Positions 5,169-18,376 of a stretch of 20,026 bases of DNA are shown here, in pieces. Below the pieces are notes generated by a model that saw only the letters and a list, made by a program, of their open reading frames with translations, made no database searches and had not been told where the DNA came from. Each line of letters starts with the position of its first letter. Position 1 is the first letter of the stretch. Made by a program: the position numbers and the translations under genes. Source of the DNA: a virus (lineage: Duplodnaviria; Heunggongvirae; Uroviricota; Caudoviricetes); IMG/VR virus record IMGVR_UViG_2695420733_000001; one strand, 5' to 3'.

Positions 5169-5449
5169 GAGATTGTGGTGCTTTTTGTGGGAGTCATCCA
5201 CTTACGCACTTTGTTTTGCCATGCCAGCAGTTAGCTTCTGCTGTAAAACTATTCATGCAGCAAACCTGCACTTCACCACAATGGTTAGCATACTTTTCCT
5301 GATTAAGATTTTGCCAAATATGCTAGCCATTGTTTCATGTATTGGACCTCCTTACTTTTTATTAAAGAGATCCAATATTCACTACTCTGTCCGTATCTCT
5401 ACTCAGGCATCAGCCTTCTTCGTTATCGTATACAGACGAGCGATGAATT

Positions 5450-5665
5450 TTAATCAGTAATGATGACATTTGCTGCTGCAGGACCTTTAGCACCACTCTC
5501 TATAGAGAAGGTAACCTTTTGACCTTCAAATAAGGTTCGATAATTATCATTCTGAATCGCAGAAAAATGCACAAACACATCTTTACTACCATCAACAGGA
5601 GAAATAAAGCCGAAACCTTTATCAGCGTTAAACCATTTTACTAAACCAGTCATTTTATTTGACAT
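5450..5665 (-). CDS. cspB: Cold-shock protein CspB, 71 aa
   Basis: [71 protein letters not shown]. Confidence 0.9.
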
Positions 5666-5965
5666 TCTACATTCCTTAACTTGAGCCTTTCGGCATAAAT
5701 GGTTTGCATAACAGAAACGACTTCGTACTTAATTGGAGAGACTCAAAGAAGGAATAAGTGAATAACACCTGAAATGAGAACTGCTTTAGTAAACTACTTC
5801 GTATATCGTCTGTTCTTCAAACCGACGCAATCATTAACGCATAGTTGAACATATGAAGCAATGTTTATTTTAGACATCCAGCCATCTTCAACCCCATCAA
5901 AAAACTATAGCTTTCTTCAGGAACGTGTGTATAGTGCGCCAAGTTATCAGTATTAAGGAATTTTT

Positions 5966-6599: not shown

Positions 6600-7352
6600 T
6601 TATCTCGTCACCTTCCTCAATTGCGCTTCCGCGTATGCTTCTTCCTGCCAGCACTTTGTTACCAGTTTACCAATGACGTCCGCATACCCCTTATACCACT
6701 GATAATCGGTCAGGTCTGGTACCAGCTTCTGGACATGACGTCGTGCCAGCGTGGTCGGTAAACGACTAAACCGGTTTCCATTACAACGCCCACAAATCTT
6801 ATATACCGGTACGCCATGAAACCGGGTTCTTTTTTCATCCAGAACAATCCCTTTACCCTTACACCCTCTGCACGCTGTGCTGGCTTCGCCCTTACCATGG
6901 CAATGCTGACATAGTTCCTTCACCCATTCTTCCTTGATTACAGATTCCCCGCGTCTGTAGTGTTTCACCACTTCGCGCAATACATTATAAAATCCCGTAC
7001 CTGAACAATGCTCACAGCGAGCCTTACTTGCCGCAGACCTGGAGTAATCAGCAAAGGCAAAACTCACGAGGTAAGGAATAATCTGTAACCGGATTTCTTC
7101 ACTCAATTTGTTCAATGTCGGGTTATCCAGTGCCATCGCGTAATTTAGCAGGCCTTCAATCGCAAACTGAGGGTCCTGAACACCAACTTTTGCCAGAAAT
7201 AAGGCCAACCCAAGTGGTGCTTTCGACTGCACCATCCCCTGCGCTGCCATTACATCCGTAATTGTTAAACAACCGGTGCCTGTCGCTGGAGCGTCATCGC
7301 TCAATTTTGGAGATTTTGGGGAGTAATATTTTGGTAAGGCTTCAAGGTTCAT
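6600..7352 (-). CDS. quuQ: Late-gene antitermination protein Q, 250 aa from MNLEALPKY
   Basis: Four CxxC pairs (CEHCSGTG, CQHCHGKG, CRGCKGKG, CGRCNGNR); sits just upstream of the late promoter. The track's 260-aa ORF is a 10-codon upstream extension. Confidence 0.8.
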   Translation of the reverse strand: MNLEALPKYYSPKSPKLSDDAPATGTGCLTITDVMAAQGMVQSKAPLGLALFLAKVGVQDPQFAIEGLLNYAMALDNPTLNKLSEEIRLQIIPYLVSFAFADYSRSAASKARCEHCSGTGFYNVLREVVKHYRRGESVIKEEWVKELCQHCHGKGEASTACRGCKGKGIVLDEKRTRFHGVPVYKICGRCNGNRFSRLPTTLARRHVQKLVPDLTDYQWYKGYADVIGKLVTKCWQEEAYAEAQLRKVTR

Positions 7353-7365
7353 GCTCGTTCTCCAC

Positions 7366-8415
7366 TTACGCCAGTACGCCAATTGCCAGCGCGCGATCGA
7401 TAAAACGAAATATCAGCTCCAGTTGGGAGCCATACTTATCTTCAAATGCCACTGTATCCGTATGCAGCTCGTTGTGATGCTTTCTGCACAAAGGCAACAC
7501 AAAGAGATCATGTGCTTTTGTTCCCATTCCGCCCTGCCCGTGACCAATCAGATGATGCGGATCGTCGGCTGGCATACCGCAGCAAGCACACGGCTGTGTC
7601 TTAACCCAACGTGTGTATTTCTCCTTAACCCAGCGGCGACGTTTAGGCAGCTTCATGAAAGATTCCGGAGACTCTGGATCAACGGTGATGCTTACCACCG
7701 TCTTTTCCTGTGGTGATTTTTGTTGCTGGTGGGCGTAAGGCAACGGTGCAAGATTTTTTGTGCGTTGTTTCAATATGCTGGTGGCGGTCTGCTCTCCCGG
7801 TACGATGTCGCTTTCGCGGTACACCGAGCAGATTTTTTCCGCTGGTAATCCCAGCGAACGACGCGATACAGCCTCAGGTAGTGCATCCACCACCTGATTG
7901 CAGACCGCCCACCAGGATAATTCAGCCAAAGATAATTCCCGCTCCTGCGTACCGCTTATTGCGTGACGGATGACGTCAATCACCCATGCTGTCAGATTTT
8001 GTTGAGCAAGCAGCTCCAGTGATTCCGATGTCTGGTCACGCAGTTGGTTGTCGCAGTGCCAGCACAGCACCATTGCGCCGGTACCATAACGGTGAATGAC
8101 TGTTTCAGTGTGATGGTAATCGCCATTAGGCCACTGGCAGGATGTAACATGACGTAATAGCCAGTCGGACAATGCGCCAACGCCGCCAGCAGCACGAATC
8201 ACCCGTTCGTTACTAAAAAACGGCAGCAATGTTTTGTCTTCCGCCAGCGGCTGGCGAACGGCAGGAACGACTCCGGATGGCAGATTACGCATGCTTTTTG
8301 GTTCCGGTTCCACCAGCACTCGAGGATTATGAAATATCTGTATGGATTCACGGCCCGGCTTAAGGACCACCAGCCCAAGCTCAGGCACCAGAACAGGTCT
8401 AAGTAATACCCGCAC
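7366..8415 (-). CDS. ydfU: YdfU-like protein with a C-terminal Cys/His-rich HNH-like motif, 349 aa from the GTG at 8415 (the frame is open to 8454)
   Basis: C-terminus PCACCGMPADDPHHLIGHGQGGMGTKAHDLFVLPLCRKHHNELH; the GTG at 8415 gives 349 aa (K-12 YdfU length as recalled) and abuts the stop of the upstream ORF. Confidence 0.7.
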   Translation of the reverse strand: MRVLLRPVLVPELGLVVLKPGRESIQIFHNPRVLVEPEPKSMRNLPSGVVPAVRQPLAEDKTLLPFFSNERVIRAAGGVGALSDWLLRHVTSCQWPNGDYHHTETVIHRYGTGAMVLCWHCDNQLRDQTSESLELLAQQNLTAWVIDVIRHAISGTQERELSLAELSWWAVCNQVVDALPEAVSRRSLGLPAEKICSVYRESDIVPGEQTATSILKQRTKNLAPLPYAHQQQKSPQEKTVVSITVDPESPESFMKLPKRRRWVKEKYTRWVKTQPCACCGMPADDPHHLIGHGQGGMGTKAHDLFVLPLCRKHHNELHTDTVAFEDKYGSQLELIFRFIDRALAIGVLA

Positions 8416-8416
8416 G

Positions 8417-8695
8417 TTACCTCCAGATCCGTTGCTGGAAAGTGCGGGACGCACGTGGTGGGCGTTCGGAATAAGGCAGCCTGACAGAGATTATCCAGTG
8501 CCGATAGTCGAGACTGAGAGCTTTCTTAACCTCGAACCCGCGCCTGCGGTAAGAATGAATCAGCCATTCGGCCTGTTCTGCAGTGCATGGAGGGTGCTGG
8601 AACCATTCAGACTTGAATGCGTGAGAATACCGCCCGTGCGTGCAGGCAAGAACGGGCGAATTATCAGAATTGTAATATTTTGCGTTGCGTGCCAT
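8417..8695 (-). CDS. Hypothetical 92-aa Cys/His-containing protein, apparently translationally coupled to ydfU
   Basis: ATG at 8695 with GGAG 8 nt upstream; MARNAKYYNSDNSPVLACTHGRYSHAFKSEWFQHPPCTAEQAEWLIHSYRRRGFEVKK.... Not matched to a K-12 Qin gene from memory. Confidence 0.55.
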   Translation of the reverse strand: MARNAKYYNSDNSPVLACTHGRYSHAFKSEWFQHPPCTAEQAEWLIHSYRRRGFEVKKALSLDYRHWIISVRLPYSERPPRASRTFQQRIWR

Positions 8696-8761
8696 CGGTT
8701 TTCTCCGGTGGCACGGTGTTACTCAGCGGGAGTTCAGCCCCGCGCAAGATTGTAGATGAGT

Positions 8762-9013
8762 TTATTCTCCTGAAAAAGCAGAAAAGCCAGCTTTTATTCC
8801 GATCTCTTTCAATGCCTGTAATGAAGTGACAAACTCACCTTCGCGCAAGATAAATCCGTCCGTGACCCGAGCATCCACAAAATTAATTAACGCAGCCCCA
8901 TTCTTTCGCAAACACATAATGCGGTAATGACTAACAAGATTTCCATTTTCAACGCACACAGCATAGAGGCCATCTTCACAAAAAATTTTACGCAGTTCTT
9001 CGATGTTCATCAT
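8762..9013 (-). CDS. rem: Small prophage protein, 83 aa; assigned as rem by position (next to hokD) and length only
   Basis: ATG at 9013 with GGAAGG upstream; MMNIEELRKIFCEDGLYAVCVENGNLVSHYRIMCLRKNGAALINFVDARVTDGFILREGEFVTSLQALKEIGIKAGFSAFSGE. Confidence 0.5.
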   Translation of the reverse strand: MMNIEELRKIFCEDGLYAVCVENGNLVSHYRIMCLRKNGAALINFVDARVTDGFILREGEFVTSLQALKEIGIKAGFSAFSGE

Positions 9014-9129
9014 CAGAATCCTTCCGGATAATTAGCTCTCCCCTTTAAGGGACCATCCCTCTTATCCCTGCGCGCTACTTAAGTATTTTTGATTCTATTC
9101 CGGCACCGTCCAGAACTTCAAACGCGTTG

Positions 9130-9160
9130 AAAATAAAAACAAAAACCCGCCGAAGCGGGT
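9130..9160 (-). terminator. Rho-independent terminator of the relB-relE-hokD operon
   Basis: Stem ACCCGC / GCGGGT with loop CGAA; T-run follows on the minus strand. About 70 nt past the hokD stop. Confidence 0.65.
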
Positions 9161-9229
9161 TAAGTGCGGGTGCGTTGAGGATGCCTGCCACATCAGAGGT
9201 GGCGAGGGATTTCTCCCCCGCCGGGTCTC

Positions 9230-9385
9230 TTACTCCTCAGGTTCGTAAGCTGTGAAGACAGCGACCTCCGTCTGGCCGGTTCGGATTCGTACCTCGCAGA
9301 GGTCTTTCCTCGTTACCAGTGCCGTCACTATGACGGTTAAACAGATGACGATCAGGGCGATTAACATCGCCTTTTGCTGCTTCAT
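9230..9385 (-). CDS. hokD: Hok-family type I toxin HokD (RelF), 51 aa
   Basis: Hand translation MKQQKAMLIALIVICLTVIVTALVTRKDLCEVRIRTGQTEVAVFTAYEPEE; below the track cutoff. Confidence 0.85.
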   Translation of the reverse strand: MKQQKAMLIALIVICLTVIVTALVTRKDLCEVRIRTGQTEVAVFTAYEPEE

Positions 9386-9456
9386 AGCCTGCTTCTCCTG
9401 TCAACGCAAAGCAGAAGTGTCACCTTCGGTGCGAAACAGAGATGTCATGCTTTGGT

Positions 9457-9744
9457 TCAGAGAATGCGTTTGACCGCCTCGCTATATACTTCCGAGCGTT
9501 CTCTTTTCCCAACAGAAATCACGAAAACGACAACTTTCTCGTCTATAACCTGGTATACAAGGCGATAGCCTGAAGACCGGAGCTTAATCTTGTAACAATC
9601 AGGCATACCACGGAGCTTGTTTGCTTCAATCCGGGGTGACTCAAGTACTTCAACCAGCTTCTTTTTCAACTGTTCACGTACCGTCGAGCCCAGCTTTCGC
9701 CATTCCTTTAGTGCCCGCTCGTCAAAATCCAGAAAATACGCCAT
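9457..9744 (-). CDS. relE: Type II toxin RelE (ribosome-dependent mRNA interferase), 95 aa
   Basis: MAYFLDFDERALKEWRKLGSTVREQLKKKLVEVLESPRIEANKLRGMPDCYKIKLRSSGYRLVYQVIDEKVVVFVISVGKRERSEVYSEAVKRIL; start overlaps the relB stop. Confidence 0.9.
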   Translation of the reverse strand: MAYFLDFDERALKEWRKLGSTVREQLKKKLVEVLESPRIEANKLRGMPDCYKIKLRSSGYRLVYQVIDEKVVVFVISVGKRERSEVYSEAVKRIL

Positions 9745-9983
9745 CAGAGTTCATCCAGCGTCACACGTACTGGCTTAGGATTACGAAGCCGTTCTTTCAC
9801 TATCTCCACAAGTTCAGCATCTTCATCACTCAGGAGTGTCTGTTTGAACGGCAAGCGTTCATTGTCAGCGATATACTCGAGCATGAGACGAAGCGCTTCA
9901 GAAGGAGTTACACCCATTTTTTCAAGCGCGGCGTAAGAACGCGCTTTAAGTTCATCGTCAATACGCAGGTTAATGCTACCCAT
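9744..9983 (-). CDS. relB: Type II antitoxin RelB, 79 aa
   Basis: MGSINLRIDDELKARSYAALEKMGVTPSEALRLMLEYIADNERLPFKQTLLSDEDAELVEIVKERLRNPKPVRVTLDEL. Confidence 0.9.
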   Translation of the reverse strand: MGSINLRIDDELKARSYAALEKMGVTPSEALRLMLEYIADNERLPFKQTLLSDEDAELVEIVKERLRNPKPVRVTLDEL

Positions 9984-9993
9984 GTCTTACACC

Positions 9994-10022
9994 TCTTGTA
10001 ATTACAAATGTCATTACAAGTA
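9994..10022. promoter_or_regulatory. relO operator / relBE promoter region with TTGTAAT/ATTACAA repeats
   Basis: TTGTAATTACAA (perfect 12-bp palindrome) and TGTCATTACAAG read directly upstream of relB. Confidence 0.7.
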
Positions 10023-10313
10023 TCGCACTACAACATGCTTAGGGCAAGTCACGAAGGAAGTCAGAAAGTAGTCGTAAGAACGGTGATCACTGTCCGCTTT
10101 GTGCCAGGAGCAGCCATTGCTAAGTCCATCCTGTATTGTGCAGGTCAGCTCGTTTTTAAAGAGTCCGGCCATCATCTTACTGGTACAGACACCATATACT
10201 TTGTGACGGTCAGGCTACATATGCACAACTCAACTTATTCATCTATTTTTTGCTTTAGCATGTCAGTGTTGCTTTCTCGTCGGCGGGTGAGCGGTGACCT
10301 GACCTGTCGATAA
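10008..10313 (+). CDS. ydfV: Possible YdfV-like ORF, 101 aa; coding status doubtful
   Basis: ATG-initiated ORF whose length matches K-12 ydfV (101 aa) as recalled; overlaps the relBE operator and has odd composition. Confidence 0.3.
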   Translation: MSLQVSHYNMLRASHEGSQKVVVRTVITVRFVPGAAIAKSILYCAGQLVFKESGHHLTGTDTIYFVTVRLHMHNSTYSSIFCFSMSVLLSRRRVSGDLTCR

Positions 10314-10886: not shown

Positions 10887-10926
10887 GCCATCAGCCTTTT
10901 CTTTAAAGACATATTATCTTTGTATC

Positions 10927-10976
10927 ATTTCTGATAGTTAACATTACAAGAATTTCTGATAGTTAACATTACAAGA
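10927..10976. repeat. Perfect 25-bp tandem direct repeat (ATTTCTGATAGTTAACATTACAAGA x2)
   Basis: Two identical adjacent copies; each holds AGTTAACATTAC, whose reverse complement GTAATGTTAACT recurs at 12788-12799. Confidence 0.8.
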
Positions 10977-11309
10977 TATAAGTAATGGACGCACTCCCAA
11001 TTAGTCTATTTAAATCGCCACGAGTTTAACTGACAACCCATGATCAATTATGAATTGCAACTATTTCTGTAGTCACTTTTGTGGGGACAGTCCACAAAAC
11101 TGCCAACTTCCGCTTCTTGCTCTTAGCGGACATTAGCATAGGCTATTTACCATAACGCCTCATTACGCGCACCGCCCAGACTGACTCAGCGCGTTTCTGG
11201 CATATCCCCGGTAAAACAAGTAACAAACCACCCGAAAATGAACACCAGAAACGCGACTTAAGAATCTACCCTATGAATGGATATGCACTCAACCGAATCG
11301 ATCTTGGTT

Positions 11310-12623
11310 TCAATCTTTTTTATCGGGATCAGGCTTCTTTTTAGGTAACTTCGGGGGCTTAACTTGCTGATGACTTTGCGTTCGGCGCGTAAGCCAGGGA
11401 TGGTCAGCTTTAGGTTTAACATAGTATTTTGAGCGTAAATCAATACGGGCATTATCCACTCGTTCATGGACACTCTTTTCATCATCCAGTGGTATAGGCT
11501 CCGGGCCATCAACATACTTTTCCCAGCCCAGCGCTTTCCCGTCATACAGAACGTTAATTTCACCGTCAAAGTTCTCGCATACAGTAACAACCGAATGCCT
11601 AAGTCGATATCCCCGGCCCTCACTGCGTACCTGAAACGCACTGCTTTTGTACTGGAAAGTGAGATTTTTAGACAGAACGCGCTTCGCCTGTAGGCTGAAG
11701 ATATAACCCAGTTCCTCTTCAGAATGGTGCACATCAAGATGAGCATTATCAGTAGTACGAGGCGACGTAGCGAACCGGTTGTTATAGGCTTCAATAAAGG
11801 TCGGCAACCATGCATTTGCTGTTTCAATATCACTGATATTCTGAAGCCGCATTTCTTTGACCAGCCTGTCCTGTAGTGTCTGATTGGCGCGCTCTACCCG
11901 CCCTTTTGCCTGCGGGCTGTTGGCATGGATTGGCTCGATGCCCAGTGTCTTTATCGCACGAGTGAACTGGGTCAGCTCACCTTCCCGCTCTGGGTTATTT
12001 ACCCTGAATATACTGTGTCTATCAGAGTAGAGAGCGAGCGGTACGCCATGATCATTAAGGTAACCCCGGAGGGTTTCCATGTAAGCCCGGGTTGTTTCAG
12101 CAGGCACAAAACGCAACGCCATCAACGCACTGGTGGCATCATCAATGAAAACGATCAGTGTACATCTGGGGCCTCGATTTTCAAACCAGTCATGAGGTGA
12201 GCCATCAATCTGGATCAGTTCACCGTAAGATGGTCGTCGCATGCGGCGTTGATATATACGGGCAATTTTACGACGGCGTTCACGCCATAACCCCTCTTCT
12301 ATCATCCACTTTCTGAGAGTTTCAACGGATAAAGATAAACCGTGTATCTCGCGCAATTTTTCGCACGCAAACGTAGGTCCAAAATCAGCGTAACGGCCTT
12401 TGAGGAGTGAAATTACTGTTGCTCTGAATTCAGTAGAAAAGGAATTATTAGGACGCTTTCCACGTCGGTGGGAAACCAGACCAGAAGGCCCTTCATTTCT
12501 ATACCGTTGCACCAGACGTTTAACCTGCCGAATAGAAATGCCAATGCGTGCCGCAGCTTGTTCCTGAATAATCTGAAGTCGGTGGAGTTCCTTATGACTC
12601 ATCGTAACAGTCTCTTTGATCAT
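11310..12623 (-). CDS. DDE transposase with N-terminal HTH and integrase-core (rve-like) domain, 437 aa; IS481-like or ISNCY/IS1202-like
   Basis: N-terminal HTH-like MSHKELHRLQIIQEQAAARIGISIRQVKRLVQRY; DDE signature candidates LIQIDGS, VFIDDATS, KGRVERANQTLQDR. Family is judged from architecture, not a search. Confidence 0.75.
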   Translation of the reverse strand: MIKETVTMSHKELHRLQIIQEQAAARIGISIRQVKRLVQRYRNEGPSGLVSHRRGKRPNNSFSTEFRATVISLLKGRYADFGPTFACEKLREIHGLSLSVETLRKWMIEEGLWRERRRKIARIYQRRMRRPSYGELIQIDGSPHDWFENRGPRCTLIVFIDDATSALMALRFVPAETTRAYMETLRGYLNDHGVPLALYSDRHSIFRVNNPEREGELTQFTRAIKTLGIEPIHANSPQAKGRVERANQTLQDRLVKEMRLQNISDIETANAWLPTFIEAYNNRFATSPRTTDNAHLDVHHSEEELGYIFSLQAKRVLSKNLTFQYKSSAFQVRSEGRGYRLRHSVVTVCENFDGEINVLYDGKALGWEKYVDGPEPIPLDDEKSVHERVDNARIDLRSKYYVKPKADHPWLTRRTQSHQQVKPPKLPKKKPDPDKKD

Positions 12624-12957
12624 GAAAAATCCCCCAGAGAATTGTCTGGGGACATTTTAGAATGGTTCAAAGGGGACATTACAGCTTGGTGTTAACAATA
12701 GCCTGCTTCTCCGTGCCTTTCGGCACGTAAGAGGCTAACCTACATGTGTCTAGCATGAAATTGGCCTCAGATTAATGTTAAGCGTCTTGCAGGACGCGTA
12801 ATGTTAACTGGGGCTTTTCTCTATCTGCCGTTGGTGTCCATGCCCGAGGCAGATAGCCTCAAGCACCCGCAGTCATTCTACTTAACTAAGATTTCCCCGC
12901 AAACCGTTTTTGTCCAGCACAGTAAATATCCAACTAAACCAATGGAGTTCGCTGTAT

Positions 12958-13137
12958 TTACCGCCAGTATTCAATGCACATGACCGCCATGAACACCCCT
13001 AAAAAAAGGGCATTTATATATCCAAATATTAATATCAAAACATCAACTTTTTCCATATACCTTGCTGTGAAGATGATGGGCATACATGATGCGAACAACC
13101 AGAACGCAACAAACAAAAACTGCAATGCGTTTTTCAT
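12958..13137 (-). CDS. Small two-helix membrane protein, 59 aa (MKNALQFLFVAFWLFASCMPIIFTARYMEKVDVLILIFGYINALFLGVFMAVMCIEYWR)
   Basis: Consensus SD AGGAGG 5 nt before the ATG; two hydrophobic helices. The track's 72-aa ORF is an upstream extension. Confidence 0.5.
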   Translation of the reverse strand: MKNALQFLFVAFWLFASCMPIIFTARYMEKVDVLILIFGYINALFLGVFMAVMCIEYWR

Positions 13138-13379
13138 TATTCCTCCTACAATCAATGTGCAATTACATTTAAACACACCTCAATTTGGCCGGACATATAA
13201 ATATCTAAACCAGAAAAAATCACTTACATAGCGTTACAAACTCTTTAGTCTAAAGGTTCATCGTAAAACATTCCCCATACTTATCAGTCCGTTCCGCGCC
13301 AGGTAGCTCATTGCCTTATCTGGCAACCTGTAATCAGGTTTCCGCTTTTTCAGTTGGCTGGTCGTTTAACCGACATAGT

Positions 13380-14030
13380 TAATCCATTAATCTAGTTGCC
13401 GGATGTTGGTGGATTTTCGCGTTTTAGTTGTTCATAAAAGTGCACAGCTTTAACCAGTTCTTCTGATGTAACTGGGACTGGTGAGGCAGTGAATAAGGCC
13501 TGAATTTGATAGTTCGGCCTGTCGTTACAATCCTCTTTTTTCGGTACATATTTCCAGTCACCAGACCACTACTTCCCCTGAAAGTCCGTAACGCCTTTTT
13601 TCACGTAGCGATATCGCCATGCCACTGGTTTTGCTTGCCCCGCCGTTTCATGCCCTTCCTGATAATTAATCTCGCTCATTCATCGCCCCACTCATCACAA
13701 TATGCTTCGACCGGAGTTTTTCCCGCTTCATAGTCATCACGCTAGGATTCGACATCAGCAGCACTTCCACCGCGTAACTCACCATAGTCCATTAATAGTT
13801 CATCCCGCTCTTCAAAACTGATGTTATATTTGGCTGAACAAAAATCAGCCACTTTGTTCTTCCTCATCGTCTTTTATTTCGTGGTATGAGTAATTGCAGT
13901 AGTTAAAGAAAATTTCTTATGCTCCGTCATGAATTTCCTCAGGTGTTGCGTCATCGTCCACTTCGAATACATCCTCAAAATCTCCACCAGCTATTCCCGT
14001 TTCAATAATAATTTTGAACTTTCGCATTTC
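13380..14030 (-). pseudogene. Decayed coding region: a run of 23-41 codon minus-strand frames that look like frame-shifted pieces of former phage genes
   Basis: Adjacent short frames ending ...KHIVMSGAMNERD, MSEINYQEGHETAGQAKPVAWRYRYVKKGVTDFQGK, ...WSGDWKYVPKKEDCNDRPNYQIQALFTASPVPVTSEELVKAVHFYEQLKRENPPTSGN; no ORF of 60 aa or more on either strand. Confidence 0.35.
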
Positions 14031-14289
14031 ACTACCGCCCTTTCGGGCGGCCTCCTGATGTTCTGAGGGTGCAGAAATCCATCCGGTTAAGGATTAAATT
14101 TTATTTACAGAACTGAATTTAATTATTCAGATATACGTATCTGTAGCCTTACGAATCTACTCACTGGATGCCTCTTTCATAAAAATAATCCAGTGGGTTT
14201 TATCGTTTTTTCCCTGTTCGTTGACAGATAACAGGTTTTCTGTCTGTCAGTGCCAGAATCTGGCTTACCGGTATTTGCGTTTCATTCCA

Positions 14290-14646
14290 TTAAAAAATCA
14301 GAACGCCGTGCGGCCTCAACACCCGAAAGGCTTCTTTAAATCTCTGTCGCGAATCATCACGCCAGGCATCTTTATTCAGCCGTCCATATTTCTTTCCCAT
14401 CCAGGCGTTATCACCAACACTCTCAAGATGCGGAGGGTCTAATACAACCATCGAAAAAGATGCGTCTGCAAATGATAATGCACGAAAATCTGCGATAATG
14501 TCAGGGCTGATAATCAAGCGTCTCCCATTGCGTAATGTGTATCCTTCTTTTCTGATATCGCTGAATATCGCCCGTTCGTCAGACTTATCGAACCAGAACA
14601 TGCGGCTGCCACAGCACATATCAAGAATGGTTGCCGGTGCACTCAC
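14290..14646 (-). CDS. Short SAM-dependent methyltransferase-like ORF, 118 aa (DPPH motif), probably truncated by an in-frame stop
   Basis: Motif-I-like LDMCCGSR and motif-IV-like VVLDPPH; far shorter than normal DNA methyltransferases; frame continues 29 codons after the TAA. GTG start overlaps the upstream stop. Confidence 0.55.
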   Translation of the reverse strand: MSAPATILDMCCGSRMFWFDKSDERAIFSDIRKEGYTLRNGRRLIISPDIIADFRALSFADASFSMVVLDPPHLESVGDNAWMGKKYGRLNKDAWRDDSRQRFKEAFRVLRPHGVLIF

Positions 14647-15065
14647 TGCGCCACGTCCTGAAAATTACCCTGATAGAAAGCCAGTATGCGCTGCATAACT
14701 TCGCTCTTCCGGCACTCGCGACAGATTATGTTTAGGCGACTGTCGTAGCGACGTATTTCTCCGTCAGGTGATGACCAGATAAGGTCCGGATCAACCACAG
14801 CAGGTTTCTTCACCTTTGCCCTCGAGAGTTTTTTGCGGGCGTTTTGCCAGTCCTTACGCGCCTGTTCAGAGGGGAATAACCCGTAGCCGGAGTTGTATAC
14901 ATCGCCACTGGCTACCAGCTCTCTGGCAAGAACGCTCATCAGATATCTAGTCGCACCTGTTTTAGCTTCCAGTTGCCGTAACGTCTCACGGCCGCTCTGG
15001 CGCACGAGTTCCACCACCTGCCATTTAATTTTTTCCCGCTCTTCTTGTGTAAAAACTTTTGCCAC
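14643..15065 (-). CDS. Hypothetical protein of the replication module, 140 aa
   Basis: GTG start 5 nt after AGGGGG; between the replication initiator and the methyltransferase-like ORF in one operon. Confidence 0.6.
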   Translation of the reverse strand: MAKVFTQEEREKIKWQVVELVRQSGRETLRQLEAKTGATRYLMSVLARELVASGDVYNSGYGLFPSEQARKDWQNARKKLSRAKVKKPAVVDPDLIWSSPDGEIRRYDSRLNIICRECRKSEVMQRILAFYQGNFQDVAQ

Positions 15066-15105
15066 AAGTCCCCCTTAAAATTACCTCATGACCTGAAATC
15101 AACAC

Positions 15106-16071
15106 TTATCCTCTGAAACCAGGCGGAATTTCTGTATCCGGTTCAGAAATATGATTAACACAACGCTGTACAGGTGAACGTCCCAGGCGGATGACCAGTT
15201 CGTCCCATTTTTCGCGGAGCTTTGACGGGCTCATGATGTTTTTTACCCAGAATGGATCTCGCTGAACCCGACCAAACATTTCGCAAATTTGTCTGTGGCT
15301 TCTGCCATCCAGCATCCGCATTGTGCGCACGTCATTGGCCCAGGCAGTCCAGTTAGGCTCTTTTGGTCGCATGATCTCGCCATCATCACTGGCTGCCTGT
15401 TCGTAGAGACCCACGATCCGCCCCCAGATCCACTGCGCACACGCCAAATCCTCCCTGCTACCCCACTGGCGTTTTTTCGCACTAAACACAACCGCGTCGG
15501 AGTTCCGGGTTAAAAAATCCTGTTCAGTCGTCTGCGGGTCCGGTTGCGAAGCTTCCGGACGAAAAGTGTTTTTATTCTCTGTAGTAATCTCTGTTGTATT
15601 CTCTGTAAGATCATCAGGCCATTTTGACCCGATGACATTGGGTCGTTTTGAACCAATGGAGCGTTTCATTTTGACCTCTTCCATCGTGTCATTTTGACCT
15701 GATGGAGCGGCGCATTTTGAACCGATGGATTCGCTCAATTTGCCACCATCTAAAAGCTCGCTCCCATAGTTGATCGTGTAGAAATTGGTCATATCGCGCT
15801 TTGATTTATTGAGCTTTTCACAACGCAAAAGCCCCAGCGTTTTCAGACTTGCAAACGCGCGCTTTAACGTTGACTCTGACCAGAATGGGAACTGTTCCAG
15901 CCATTGTTCCGTTGTGTTATAAATCCAGCGAACACCATCACATTCCATGCCGGAGTTGGTATCTCTCAACCAGTAGTGCAGTTGTTGCAAAACAATGGCT
16001 TCGTTTAAGCCAATTTTCATTGCCAGCTGCGTGTTTATAACCAGTGGGCGTTCAGCAAAAAGAAGGCTCAT
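15106..16071 (-). CDS. Phage replication initiator (lambda O-like organiser) with the origin iterons inside its coding sequence; frame is open to 16125 (TTG)
   Basis: N-terminal winged-helix-like region (LNEAIVLQQLHYWLRD); central repeated peptides SIGSK/VIGSK encoded by DNA iterons; sits where lambda O sits. Start (16071, 16020 or 16125) uncertain. Confidence 0.7.
   Translation of the reverse strand: MSLLFAERPLVINTQLAMKIGLNEAIVLQQLHYWLRDTNSGMECDGVRWIYNTTEQWLEQFPFWSESTLKRAFASLKTLGLLRCEKLNKSKRDMTNFYTINYGSELLDGGKLSESIGSKCAAPSGQNDTMEEVKMKRSIGSKRPNVIGSKWPDDLTENTTEITTENKNTFRPEASQPDPQTTEQDFLTRNSDAVVFSAKKRQWGSREDLACAQWIWGRIVGLYEQAASDDGEIMRPKEPNWTAWANDVRTMRMLDGRSHRQICEMFGRVQRDPFWVKNIMSPSKLREKWDELVIRLGRSPVQRCVNHISEPDTEIPPGFRG
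15620..15750. repeat. Iteron array (about six 18-20 bp direct repeats, consensus CATTTTGAMCYGATGGAG) = putative prophage origin of replication
   Basis: Copies start near 15620, 15644, 15666, 15689, 15712 and 15736, spaced about 22-23 bp, all inside the initiator gene as in lambda ori. Confidence 0.65.
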
Positions 16072-16573
16072 AATTCCATCCAGCTTTTTGTTGGTATTGC
16101 TGTCGATACGCAAGTTTGAAAGCAATTGCTTTTTCTATAAGTTCGTCAGTTTCACGATCCACTACGGCAGGATCAGCAAAAAGCAGTCCGGACTCCACCA
16201 CATCGCCATATTCTTTGTTTAACCCGGCGATCATGCACGTGATGCTTTTTCCGTCAGTAATTTCACGATACAACCTGAAATCATTAATCCGGATAGCCTC
16301 CATAATTGCAGGCACTAGCGCCGTGAACTTTTCACGCTTATCCCTGGTGTCGATAGCCTTCCAGCGTTCAAATATCTTCACTCGATTAACGCCAAGCGCT
16401 CGCTGATCAATCGCGCCACCTTCATATGTGACACGCTGAACATCGATGTTCGGGCGCTCTTTCAAAGCCCAGAATGCTTCAGTGATTAATATCGTCGCCT
16501 GCTCCTGTGTCATTCCTGGTCGACATATCCAGGCATCCAGAGCCTCACGAGCCTGTTCAGGAGTGATTTTCAT
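16052..16573 (-). CDS. CII-position protein, 173 aa, possibly YdaT-family; K-12 ydfX may be a remnant of it
   Basis: ATG at 16573 overlapping the dicC 3' end; between the cro-like gene and the replication initiator. Family assignment is a guess from position. Confidence 0.55.
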   Translation of the reverse strand: MKITPEQAREALDAWICRPGMTQEQATILITEAFWALKERPNIDVQRVTYEGGAIDQRALGVNRVKIFERWKAIDTRDKREKFTALVPAIMEAIRINDFRLYREITDGKSITCMIAGLNKEYGDVVESGLLFADPAVVDRETDELIEKAIAFKLAYRQQYQQKAGWNYEPSFC

Positions 16574-16787
16574 TGTTCAACCGCCCCGCCCGCTTCGTCT
16601 TACGATATTCATCATAAACTTTGGGATCATACTGAAGCTCCCCGCCAGATGCCTCCTGTAGACGCATCGCGCGACCTTCGGGAACTAAATCCCCTTTCCA
16701 GCTATAAAGCGAAGCCAAACGAATACCTGCTGCTTGTGCAAGTTTTGTTTTTGAACCGAAATACAAAAGAGCGTCAGTTTTAAGCAT
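16557..16787 (-). CDS. dicC: Cro-like regulator DicC, 76 aa
   Basis: MLKTDALLYFGSKTKLAQAAGIRLASLYSWKGDLVPEGRAMRLQEASGGELQYDPKVYDEYRKTKRAGRLNNENHS; divergent from dicA. Confidence 0.85.
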   Translation of the reverse strand: MLKTDALLYFGSKTKLAQAAGIRLASLYSWKGDLVPEGRAMRLQEASGGELQYDPKVYDEYRKTKRAGRLNNENHS

Positions 16788-18318: not shown

Positions 18319-18376
18319 TTTCTGGTGACGTTTGGCGGTATCAGTTTTACTCCGTGACTGCTCTGCCGCCCTTTTT
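18319..18376 (+). ncRNA. dicF: DicF small RNA (Hfq-dependent, represses ftsZ and other mRNAs)
   Basis: TTTCTGGTGACGTTTGGCGGTATCAGTTTTACTCCGTGACTGCTCTGCCGCCCTTTTT matches DicF as recalled, including its terminator hairpin and U-tail. Confidence 0.9.

Follow-up and report, generated by a model that had tools for sequence, protein, structure and literature searches.

YdfU, a predicted HNH nuclease of the Qin prophage nin region, and the small upstream gene that also precedes other phage nucleases

The position just upstream of the late antiterminator gene Q in lambdoid prophages is a slot for DNA-processing nucleases. Lambda Rap/NinG (Pfam PF05766) is a His-Me finger nuclease encoded in the nin region just before Q, as YdfU of the Qin prophage is predicted to be, and in Gifsy-2-type phages its gene lies directly downstream of the small gene considered here. 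The branch-specific endonuclease activity of Rap/NinG is documented (cited in PMC5714182 and PMC4118853), which makes it the best functional analogy for YdfU. It differs, however, in belonging to His-Me finger group 24, and hhalign comparisons of NinG with the YdfU C-terminus or with YbcO gave no relationship (probability 2% for YdfU). YbcO from DLP12 (Pfam PF07102/DUF1364, PDB 3g27) is, like YdfU, a member of His-Me finger group 7, in which DUF968 and DUF1364 were placed with Qin YdfU and YbcO named, and its fold was reported in the same paper (Jablonska et al. 2017, PMC5714182). The two proteins have a common motif order (Cys pair, (A/H)H, G.K..D, C..(C/H)H), YbcO shares the YdfU slot before rusA and Q, and the same small phrog_1212 gene precedes YbcO in several phages. 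By contrast, YbcO is a 96-aa single domain whereas YdfU has 349 aa, its N-terminal part being longer by ~270 residues and harbouring a second Cys/His cluster, and the alignment between them is weak (hhalign, 69 columns, E = 3.9e-4, probability 36%). We take lambda itself to have ninF upstream of NinG and no phrog_1212 member, and lambda-type NinG and DLP12 YbcO to represent gene orders without the small gene.

P1 Ref, a RecA-dependent HNH nuclease (PF16786, PDB 3plw), is likewise a phage-encoded, recombination-linked nuclease, and it matches the YdfU HNH core weakly (E = 0.003-0.004, residues ~268-316), below the curated cut-off (18 bits vs 26.9). DUF968 proteins of Gram-positive phages, to which a zinc-finger HNH motif has been ascribed (Curtis et al. 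2014, PMC4118853), belong to the same family as YdfU and share this C-terminal motif; their N-terminal domain resembles lambda Orf/NinB, whereas residues 1-160 of YdfU match no Pfam family, NinB included. Relatives of the small upstream protein are on record as Gifsy-2 STM1021.1n, PY54 ORF47, N15 Orf QD1 and mEp237 gp51, all annotated as hypothetical. These phrog_1212 members are found at the corresponding nin-region position and are 38-48% identical to the 92-aa ORF over a 66-residue core; they differ in that they lack its 26-residue extension and are followed by NinG, YbcO or others, not by YdfU. No paper found mentioned the accession of the 92-aa protein or its MG1655 coordinates, and the papers searched contained no biochemical work on either YdfU or YbcO.

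The window analysed here is a 20,026-nucleotide stretch of viral DNA (IMG/VR record IMGVR_UViG_2695420733_000001). The DNA is 99.9% identical to K-12 Qin, and comparison of annotations gave the gene order relB-relE-hokD-rem-small gene-ydfU-quuQ. The late antiterminator gene quuQ/ydfT comes directly after ydfU, starting 13 nt past its stop, and thereby identifies the locus, which is on the minus strand, as the distal part of the nin region in a Qin-type prophage of E. coli. Its features are as follows.

8762..9013, minus strand: rem, which in the Qin-type lineage lies 66 nt upstream of the small gene (annotation)
8417..8695, minus strand: 92-codon small gene of the phrog_1212 family (ORF, sequence, profile match, dN/dS)
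8618..8695, minus strand: codons 1-26 of the small gene, encoding its N-terminal extension (absent from 66-aa homologues; dN/dS 0.93; pLDDT <50)
8420..8617, minus strand: conserved 66-residue core of the small protein (AlphaFold2, dN/dS, pI, conserved columns)
8413..8424, minus strand: coupling junction (sequence; design recurs in other phages)
7366..8415, minus strand: ydfU, 349 aa (RefSeq annotation; DUF968; phrog_96)
8053..8139, minus strand: second conserved Cys/His cluster, in the YdfU N-domain, a putative zinc knuckle (invariant in 34 relatives)
7462..7590, minus strand: His-Me finger (HNH) core of YdfU, residues 276-318 (profile matches, invariant residues, hhalign, PMC5714182)
6600..7352, minus strand: quuQ/ydfT, late antiterminator Q (Pfam Antiterm 4.2e-54; annotation)

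The stretch is an ordinary nin-region module of an E. coli Qin prophage. A scan of positions 7300-10100 for promoters and terminators found nothing above chance, except that a good hairpin follows hokD (9161-9144, minus strand). Among the loci of the 92-aa subfamily, 82 have rem upstream of the small gene.

The ydfU gene runs from GTG 8415 to TAA 7368-7366 and encodes 349 aa, in agreement with RefSeq ydfU in length and start. A program-listed 362-aa ORF from GTG 8454 was dropped as ydfU because the evidence favours GTG 8415, namely an N-terminus, MR(V/A)LL, kept in three lineages, the GGAGG Shine-Dalgarno (SD) sequence and the RefSeq annotation. The protein consists of an N-terminal domain of no assigned family followed by a DUF968 region that ends in a His-Me finger (HNH) motif. 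DUF968 (Pfam PF06147) matched far above its cut-off of 27.8 bits, at 256.6 bits (E = 1.5e-76), its model being covered in full (1-171) by YdfU residues 160-346, and phrog_96, 'HNH endonuclease' in PHROGs, matched at 2.8e-171. HNHc_6 fell just short of its curated cut-off of 26.6 bits with the full-length protein (26.2 bits) and exceeded it when only the C-terminal half was scanned (27.7 bits), while RecA_dep_nuc (the P1 Ref family) matched weakly at 17.6-18.3 bits against a cut-off of 26.9; these two matches span residues 271-328 and 268-316, respectively.

The C-terminal Cys/His residues of YdfU (C276, C278, C279, H287, H288, H292, H302, C310, H313, H314 and H318) amount to 11 per 50 residues (P ~8e-7 vs a background of 3.4%) and form the core pattern CxCC...DPHH...G.GGMGTK..D...C..HH.ELH. 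Ten positions within it (C276, C279, H287, H288, H292, K300, D303, C310, E316 and H318) are invariant in 34 relatives, H314 is nearly so, and the motif residues are still present at 52% identity. The residue pattern expected of a His-Me finger, with flanking Cys pairs for zinc, a His ending strand 1 and a His or Asn in the helix for the catalytic metal, is conserved here. The cluster is present as the original prediction described it, and the suggestion that this C-terminus is HNH-like agrees both with the DUF968 and phrog_96 matches and with earlier publication (PMC5714182). A further cluster, C93-x7-H101-x16-C118-W-H120-C121, lies in the N-terminal domain, where 7 Cys/His fall within 29 residues (P = 4e-5); it is invariant in the same 34 relatives, is retained in lineages at 52-59% identity and may form a CHCC zinc knuckle.

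Structural comparisons of YdfU were limited by the AlphaFold2 model, which had a mean pLDDT of 55 and came from a shallow alignment, the homologue search having listed only relatives at identities of at least 77%. This low-pLDDT model places strands near residues 287-288 and 306-307 ahead of a helix spanning 311-319, which is the order expected. The best Foldseek matches were HNH domains (IscB, Gme HNH, Cas5-HNH), none of them significant (E of at least 1), and a PDB sequence search with YdfU returned nothing credible (the best, PNGase at E = 0.32, being spurious). YdfU is a predicted HNH-type DNA-cutting enzyme, and has been so classified in the literature. Its C-terminal part is probably a DUF968 His-Me finger (HNH, beta-beta-alpha-metal) domain that is closest to YbcO. 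From this we infer a metal-dependent DNA endonuclease that would act on recombination or replication intermediates, and YdfU may be functionally equivalent to Rap/NinG, YbcO and RusA, whose genes fill its slot in related phages.

The small ORF extends from ATG 8695 to TAA 8419-8417 (92 aa) and is preceded by a GGAG of its own at 8706-8703. Its product is the PGAP hypothetical protein WP_012304870.1, and the gene is absent from the curated MG1655 annotation (NC_000913.3). The phrog_1212 profile matched the protein at 1.7e-35, with profile positions 1-66 of 66 aligned to residues 27-92, and searches turned up reciprocal relatives both in phages and in genomes. Pfam (E <= 0.1), NCBIfam and PADLOC gave no match, and models of Nin families (NinE, NinF, NinH and YlcG) matched none of 34 members of the small family at E <= 10. 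Homologues with 35-50% identity occur in phages of Salmonella, Klebsiella, Citrobacter, Yersinia, Edwardsiella and Erwinia; the family is a narrow, Enterobacterales one, with 103 clusters at 50% identity among 1.84 billion proteins.

Across 38 distinct alleles of the small gene, overall dN/dS was 0.22; codons 27-80 gave 0.10 and codons 81-92 gave 0.13, as compared with ratios of 1.3 and 1.6 in the other two frames. Codons 1-26 evolve neutrally (dN/dS 0.93); the corresponding extension is predicted to be disordered (pLDDT <50) and is limited to the Escherichia/Shigella 92-aa subfamily, being missing in the 66-aa homologues. The small ORF is a real gene, under purifying selection on its core only. 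AlphaFold2 modelled residues 30-70 with a pLDDT of about 88-90, giving a beta-alpha-beta-beta core that is followed by the basic tail PRxSRTFQQRIWR. The pI of the core is 10.6, and the phrog_1212 members tested had values of 9.4-10.6. Beyond the extension, the small gene encodes an alpha/beta protein of 66 residues that is basic (pI about 10) and belongs to phrog_1212, a small family of the enterobacteria. Two candidate relationships were rejected. Glyoxalase (PF00903) matched 13/34 members weakly (best E = 0.016), which we attribute to a resemblance of the beta-alpha-beta-beta(-beta) module repeated among near-identical sequences, and a PDB search with the family profile matched KtrA over 36 residues (E = 0.002), which is not credible.

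The description of this 92-aa protein as Cys/His-rich did not hold up. It contains 2 Cys and 5 His (P = 0.04; P = 0.19 for the core alone), and three of these seven residues (C18, H20 and H25) fall within the neutral, disordered extension. H34 and C37 are the only Cys/His conserved in the small family, and both are missing from members of the PY54 type and the Pseudocitrobacter/Limoniibacter type, while some phrog_1212 members have 0 Cys and 0 His. Metal binding would call for at least three or four conserved Cys/His ligands, and the small protein is, on its conserved columns, predicted not to be metal-binding. Any role in DNA processing would be a generic one, for example binding DNA, a guess made from its charge and position.

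At the junction of the two genes, both ORFs have the limits originally proposed, on the minus strand, which the prediction had left unspecified, and the small-gene TAA (8419-8417) is separated from the ydfU GTG (8415-8413) by the single base C 8416, giving GGAGG-TAA-C-GTG. The GGAGG (8424-8420) lies inside the final two codons of the small ORF, Trp91-Arg92 (TGG AGG). With the SD in these codons and the stop one base before the GTG, translation of ydfU is probably coupled to that of the small gene, and the geometry is thus consistent with the coupling that the original prediction proposed. The same design, tgg-(a/g)gg-stop-1..6 nt-start, also precedes NinG, YbcO, RusA and the DEDD exonuclease among 225 related loci, such that the embedded SD is conserved regardless of the downstream partner. 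Demonstrated links between the small gene and ydfU are limited to this arrangement for their expression.

The gene following the small gene could be assigned at 225 loci, which were gathered from four seed sequences and are so redundant that they may represent perhaps only about ten independent junctions. It was NinG in 99 cases, YdfU in 88 (plus 2 fragments), the DEDD exonuclease in 19, YbcO in 14, RusA in 1 and another gene in 2. A nuclease gene therefore follows directly in all but two of the 225 loci, and these nucleases come from five or six families that are unrelated or distantly related. Other locus searches yielded less: a divergent 66-aa alignment had no usable conserved stretch, a search with P0376 confirmed no loci, and a metagenome scan produced one weak, partial match. 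The same 66-aa core precedes both NinG and YbcO, and small-protein cores that are 92% identical precede RusA and YbcO. The order of genes in the slot varies similarly. In Gifsy-2 it is small gene-NinG-Q; in other relatives it is small gene-YdfU-RusA-Q, small gene-YbcO-RusA-(YlcG)-Q, or the small gene followed by a 93-aa YbcO/DUF968-like protein, RusA and Q.

Viewed from the side of ydfU, the association depends on the lineage. The small gene was upstream of ydfU in 79/79 Qin-type phage contigs. By contrast, it was found within 2.5 kb in 0/78 contigs (34 distinct proteins) of a second, 331-aa YdfU lineage, and in a third lineage rusA lies between the two genes (small gene-RusA-YdfU-Q). The co-occurrence by which the original prediction was to be judged is thus mixed, being strict in the Qin-type contigs, absent from the second lineage and interrupted by rusA in the third. 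Moreover, alleles of the small gene and ydfU are shuffled, with identities of 99% and 91% in one contig and 91% and 99% in another. In-frame fusions were seen once each for small gene plus YdfU (P0175) and small gene plus YbcO (L211). Two-way co-occurrence of a nuclease with a dedicated partner is not what these loci display, and the notion that the coupled genes form such a pair gives way to a series in which NinG, YbcO, RusA, the DEDD exonuclease and others also follow the small gene. As a portable, partner-independent module, the small gene does not encode a YdfU-specific subunit.

Taken together, we think it likely that YdfU is a predicted HNH nuclease in the Qin nin slot and that the small gene is portable, partner-independent and linked to it by expression only. 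The 92-codon ORF might instead be no functional protein gene at all, but a leader, spacer or Rho-loading region that feeds ribosomes to ydfU or silences it. This would fit its omission from the curated MG1655 annotation, its unconstrained N-terminal third and the very strong Rho-dependent terminator reported upstream of ydfU in K-12 (PMC9160355). However, purifying selection is frame-specific (dN/dS of 0.10 in the core vs 1.3-1.6 in other frames), homologues at 35-50% identity are spread across enterobacterial phages, and the ORF has its own SD and a confidently predicted fold; as a sole explanation, a leader or spacer is refuted by the dN/dS data, and we regard it as very improbable. We think it just as improbable that the two genes form a dedicated two-component system in which the 92-aa protein is a metal-binding subunit, inhibitor (immunity protein) or specificity factor of YdfU, and which might serve defence or counter-defence. 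Strict adjacency in the Qin-type lineage (79/79 contigs), the confinement of the 26-residue extension to the subfamily that precedes YdfU and the single fusion to YdfU (P0175) would be expected of such a pair, yet it is largely refuted by the neighbourhood data, with 0/78 contigs of one YdfU lineage carrying the small gene, rusA interposed in another and alleles shuffled between contigs. The extension is, in addition, disordered and neutrally evolving, and the Cys/His of the small protein are not conserved. An anti-host defence role, as suggested originally, found no significant defence-system match in PADLOC-DB 2.0, in which the small protein matched no model and YdfU had only a chance-level match to PglZ (E = 0.078, 9 bits).

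The regularity with which a nuclease follows the small gene could be a real functional tie that a positional reading undervalues. The phrog_1212 protein would in that case be a general accessory factor of nin-region nucleases, for example a basic DNA- or branch-binding recruiter or regulator of the nuclease encoded next, and coupling would hold the two at a fixed ratio. Consistent with this, essentially all loci have a nuclease next (NinG, YbcO, the YbcO-like 93-aa protein, YdfU, RusA or the RNase_T-type exonuclease), the junction with its SD in the last two codons is conserved, the protein is strongly basic with a tightly constrained core and tail, and rare in-frame fusions join it to YdfU and YbcO. 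On the other hand, the partners belong to three unrelated folds (His-Me finger, RusA and DEDD), a spread that speaks against any single protein-protein interface shared by all, and lambda-type NinG, DLP12 YbcO and the 331-aa YdfU lineage manage without the small gene. A nuclease beside Q is also nearly universal in lambdoid phages, so that the adjacency may be mere conserved gene order. We give a general accessory factor a modest chance and think it unlikely on balance. A universal helper, that is, a small basic DNA- or branch-binding factor that targets or tunes unrelated nin nucleases (Rap/NinG, YbcO, YdfU, RusA and the DEDD exonuclease) on recombination intermediates and whose gene is always coupled to the next nuclease, seems to us distinctly doubtful.

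Given that the HNH likeness of YdfU was already published and that databases (RefSeq/PGAP, Pfam DUF968, PHROGs) already list both genes, the reading of a portable gene tied to ydfU by expression adds little. It corrects the view of the small protein, which is neither a zinc or Cys/His protein nor a YdfU-specific partner, and it identifies an annotation gap, in that the curated record of E. coli K-12 MG1655 does not include this conserved, selected 92-codon gene. It also provides a modest lead, namely a 66-residue basic family that nearly always abuts a downstream nuclease gene and carries the ribosome-binding site of that gene. If the small protein is a cofactor shared by these nucleases, it would be a new player in phage recombination, a process studied for decades in lambda; if it is not, the arrangement would simply be conserved operon architecture.

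Over the 1.5 kb around the 92-codon small ORF and ydfU, identity to the Qin cryptic prophage, as found in derivatives of E. coli K-12 and in many further strains, is 99.9%. The gene order is relB, relE, hokD, rem, 92-codon ORF, ydfU and quuQ/ydfT, all on the minus strand. The product of quuQ/ydfT matches the Pfam Antiterm family (4.2e-54) and the locus belongs to the distal nin region of a lambdoid prophage, immediately 5' of the late antiterminator gene Q. The anatomy originally predicted for the two ORFs held up, with the addition of the strand, which had not been stated:

8417-8695, minus strand: small ORF, ATG at 8695 to TAA at 8419-8417, 92 aa
7366-8415, minus strand: ydfU, GTG at 8415 to TAA at 7368-7366, 349 aa, start and length as in RefSeq

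A ribosome site (GGAG) lies 9-12 nt 5' of the ATG at 8695, and a single base separates the small-ORF stop from the ydfU GTG; the Shine-Dalgarno sequence of ydfU (GGAGG, 8424-8420) consists of the last two codons of the small ORF, TGG AGG. A 362-aa version of ydfU starting at GTG 8454, taken from a mechanical ORF list, was rejected; the Shine-Dalgarno sequence and the N-terminus MR(V/A)LL, kept in three YdfU lineages, favour GTG 8415. Rem, the small gene, ydfU and quuQ are all closely spaced in this operon, with gaps of 66 nt between rem and the small gene and 13 nt (7353-7365) between ydfU and quuQ. Whichever gene lies downstream, the junction is built alike: TGG and then GGN or AGG close the small gene and serve as the Shine-Dalgarno sequence of the next gene, whose start codon overlaps the stop or falls 1-6 nt past it. 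This anatomy suggests that translation of ydfU and its counterparts is probably coupled to that of the small gene.

The HNH-like C-terminus proposed for YdfU was supported. Eleven Cys/His residues fall within 50 positions (C276, C278, C279, H287, H288, H292, H302, C310, H313, H314 and H318; P ~8e-7), Pfam DUF968 covers residues 160-346 (1.5e-76), and the entire protein matches phrog_96, 'HNH endonuclease' (2.8e-171). HNHc_6 scored 26.2 bits on full-length YdfU, narrowly below the cut-off of 26.6, but reached 27.7 bits on the C-terminal half by itself; RecA_dep_nuc, the P1 Ref family, matched weakly. The HNH motif residues are invariant (H314 almost so) across 34 relatives and are kept in a lineage at only 52% identity. 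A 69-column profile-profile alignment with the collected YbcO sequences brought the motifs into register (E = 3.9e-4, probability 36%). The AlphaFold2 model of YdfU is poor (pLDDT 55; relatives among the matches listed are all at least 77% identical), and HNH-domain matches in a Foldseek search with it were not significant. The HNH reading is right, but had been published before: DUF968 and DUF1364 jointly constitute His-Me finger group 7 of Jablonska et al. 2017 (PMC5714182), who name Qin YdfU and DLP12 YbcO (PDB 3g27), mention RusA and Q as neighbours and propose a recombination role. A zinc-finger HNH motif in DUF968 was described by Curtis et al. 2014 (PMC4118853), and a nuclease function of DUF1364 was predicted by Kaur and Subramanian 2016 (PMC4999995). 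No enzymology of YdfU or YbcO was found in the papers searched.

Residues 1-160 of YdfU matched no Pfam family. Within them lies a further invariant Cys/His cluster, absent from the original prediction, which persists in three YdfU lineages at identities as low as 52% and may be a zinc knuckle (C93-x7-H101-x16-C118-W-H120-C121):

8053-8139, minus strand: YdfU N-terminal Cys/His cluster, residues 93-121

Qin has no rusA, whereas intact relatives, namely mEp460, PPompW phages and vB_EcoS-689R5 (loci L006, L007 and L008), carry it after ydfU. Set against these, the 13-nt ydfU-Q gap indicates that the Qin-type module lost, or never had, this resolvase. A very strong Rho-dependent terminator has been reported 5' of ydfU in K-12 (PMC9160355), consistent with silent genes in a cryptic prophage. 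Separately, a strong hairpin resembling an intrinsic terminator (AACCCGC-TTCG-GCGGGTT plus a T-run; 9144-9161, minus strand) lies just 3' of hokD, before rem. Past flxA, positions 10900-16600 are unlike MG1655 Qin and include DUF977 and YdaT-like ORFs; the window therefore derives from a Qin-like prophage of a non-MG1655 strain. Other features are:

11310-12623, minus strand: 437-aa ORF with HTH and integrase-core (rve_3) matches, beyond flxA
12697-12868, minus strand: sok antitoxin RNA, beyond flxA
2540-2925 and 5434-5826, both minus strand: two cspA-type thermoregulator RNA elements (Rfam RF01766), leaders of prophage cold-shock genes
18320-18371, plus strand: DicF sRNA

The small protein matched nothing in Pfam, NCBIfam or PADLOC, and belongs to phrog_1212, whose 66-position profile covers residues 27-92 (1.7e-35). 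Homologues 66-69 aa long are encoded by temperate phages and prophages of Salmonella (Gifsy-2), Klebsiella, Citrobacter, Cronobacter, Yersinia (PY54), Edwardsiella, Hafnia and Erwinia. This is a narrow family: it comprises 529 clusters at 90% identity, and 1.84 billion proteins yielded only 103 representatives at 50% identity, almost all of which are stand-alone and ~66 aa long. The 26-residue N-terminal extension is restricted to the Escherichia/Shigella subfamily, is predicted to be disordered and has a dN/dS of 0.93. The core is confidently modelled by AlphaFold2 as beta-alpha-beta-beta (pLDDT ~90), with a basic tail after it, and the protein is strongly basic across subfamilies (pI 9.4-10.6). 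Its description as Cys/His-rich did not survive comparison: only H34 and C37 of seven such residues are conserved, both are substituted in PY54-type and Pseudocitrobacter-type members, and one such member lacks Cys and His altogether, so the small protein cannot be zinc-binding.

Starting from four seed sequences, we collected 229 loci that carry a family member and classified the downstream gene in the 225 that had one, with classes confirmed by Pfam. NinG followed in 99 loci (64 distinct proteins), YdfU in 88 plus two frameshifted (64 distinct), an RNase_T-type DEDD exonuclease in 19, YbcO in 14 plus one in-frame fusion, and RusA and PY54 ORF48 in one each. Another gene immediately 3' of the small gene, in Citrobacter and Enterobacter prophages (L399, L400 and L401, each at 2704-2985), encodes a 93-aa protein with no precomputed Pfam domain and sub-threshold matches to YbcO (7e-5) and DUF968 (1e-3); it has the same kind of motif, here CxxC...AH...G.G.K.DD...C..CH, and looks like an intermediate between these families. 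An additional lineage has the order small gene, RusA, YdfU, Q. The gene 5' of the small gene encodes DUF1367 (107), Rem (82), a zinc-ribbon protein (19) or a NinB-like protein (8). One identical 66-aa core is found 5' of both NinG and YbcO, in different contigs, and RusA and YbcO are preceded by cores 92% identical. In-frame fusions of the small protein to YbcO (L211, 194 aa) and to YdfU (P0175, 438 aa), one each, could be real or sequencing or assembly errors.

That the small ORF is not a gene is very improbable, because across 38 distinct alleles dN/dS is 0.10 in codons 27-80 and 0.13 in the tail, whereas the remaining two frames give 1.3-1.6. A dedicated pair with YdfU, or a role in defence, fares as poorly. 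Co-occurrence is complete for Qin-type YdfU (79/79 contigs with sufficient upstream sequence), but not so in another common YdfU lineage (331 aa, 59% identical), whose 78 contigs with 34 distinct proteins lack any phrog_1212 gene within 2.5 kb; the order there is RusA, KilA-N domain protein, YdfU and Phage_antitermQ-type Q (L311-L390, e.g. L312 1120-3891). Alleles are also shuffled within E. coli, one contig having the small protein at 99% and YdfU at 91% identity and another the reverse; among 5,426 complete E. coli genomes, 4,529 carry the small gene and 4,944 ydfU, often in several copies. Partner swapping, the YdfU lineage without the small gene and allele shuffling indicate a lineage-specific neighbourhood rather than an obligate two-component unit.

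It is somewhat less unlikely, though still doubtful, that the small protein is a general cofactor of nin-region nucleases: its adjacency to nuclease genes is near-universal over three unrelated nuclease folds, beyond the expected regularity, but nucleases clearly occur without it and the sample holds few independent junctions. We favour instead a portable nin-region module, independent of partner, for which a generic DNA-directed role would be a guess from charge and position. YdfU itself would be a phage-encoded His-Me finger endonuclease, occupying the nuclease slot that precedes Q; its family and position make branched recombination or replication intermediates the most likely substrates, as with Rap/NinG and RusA.

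Taken together, the small gene and ydfU are an ordinary, already catalogued nin-region module. Two minor by-products are the regular placement of phrog_1212 genes 5' of nuclease genes and an annotation gap at a conserved gene under purifying selection, which lies between ydfU and rem at NC_000913.3 1644306-1644584 (minus strand) and is unannotated in the curated MG1655 RefSeq, while PGAP-annotated genomes do carry it (WP_012304870.1).
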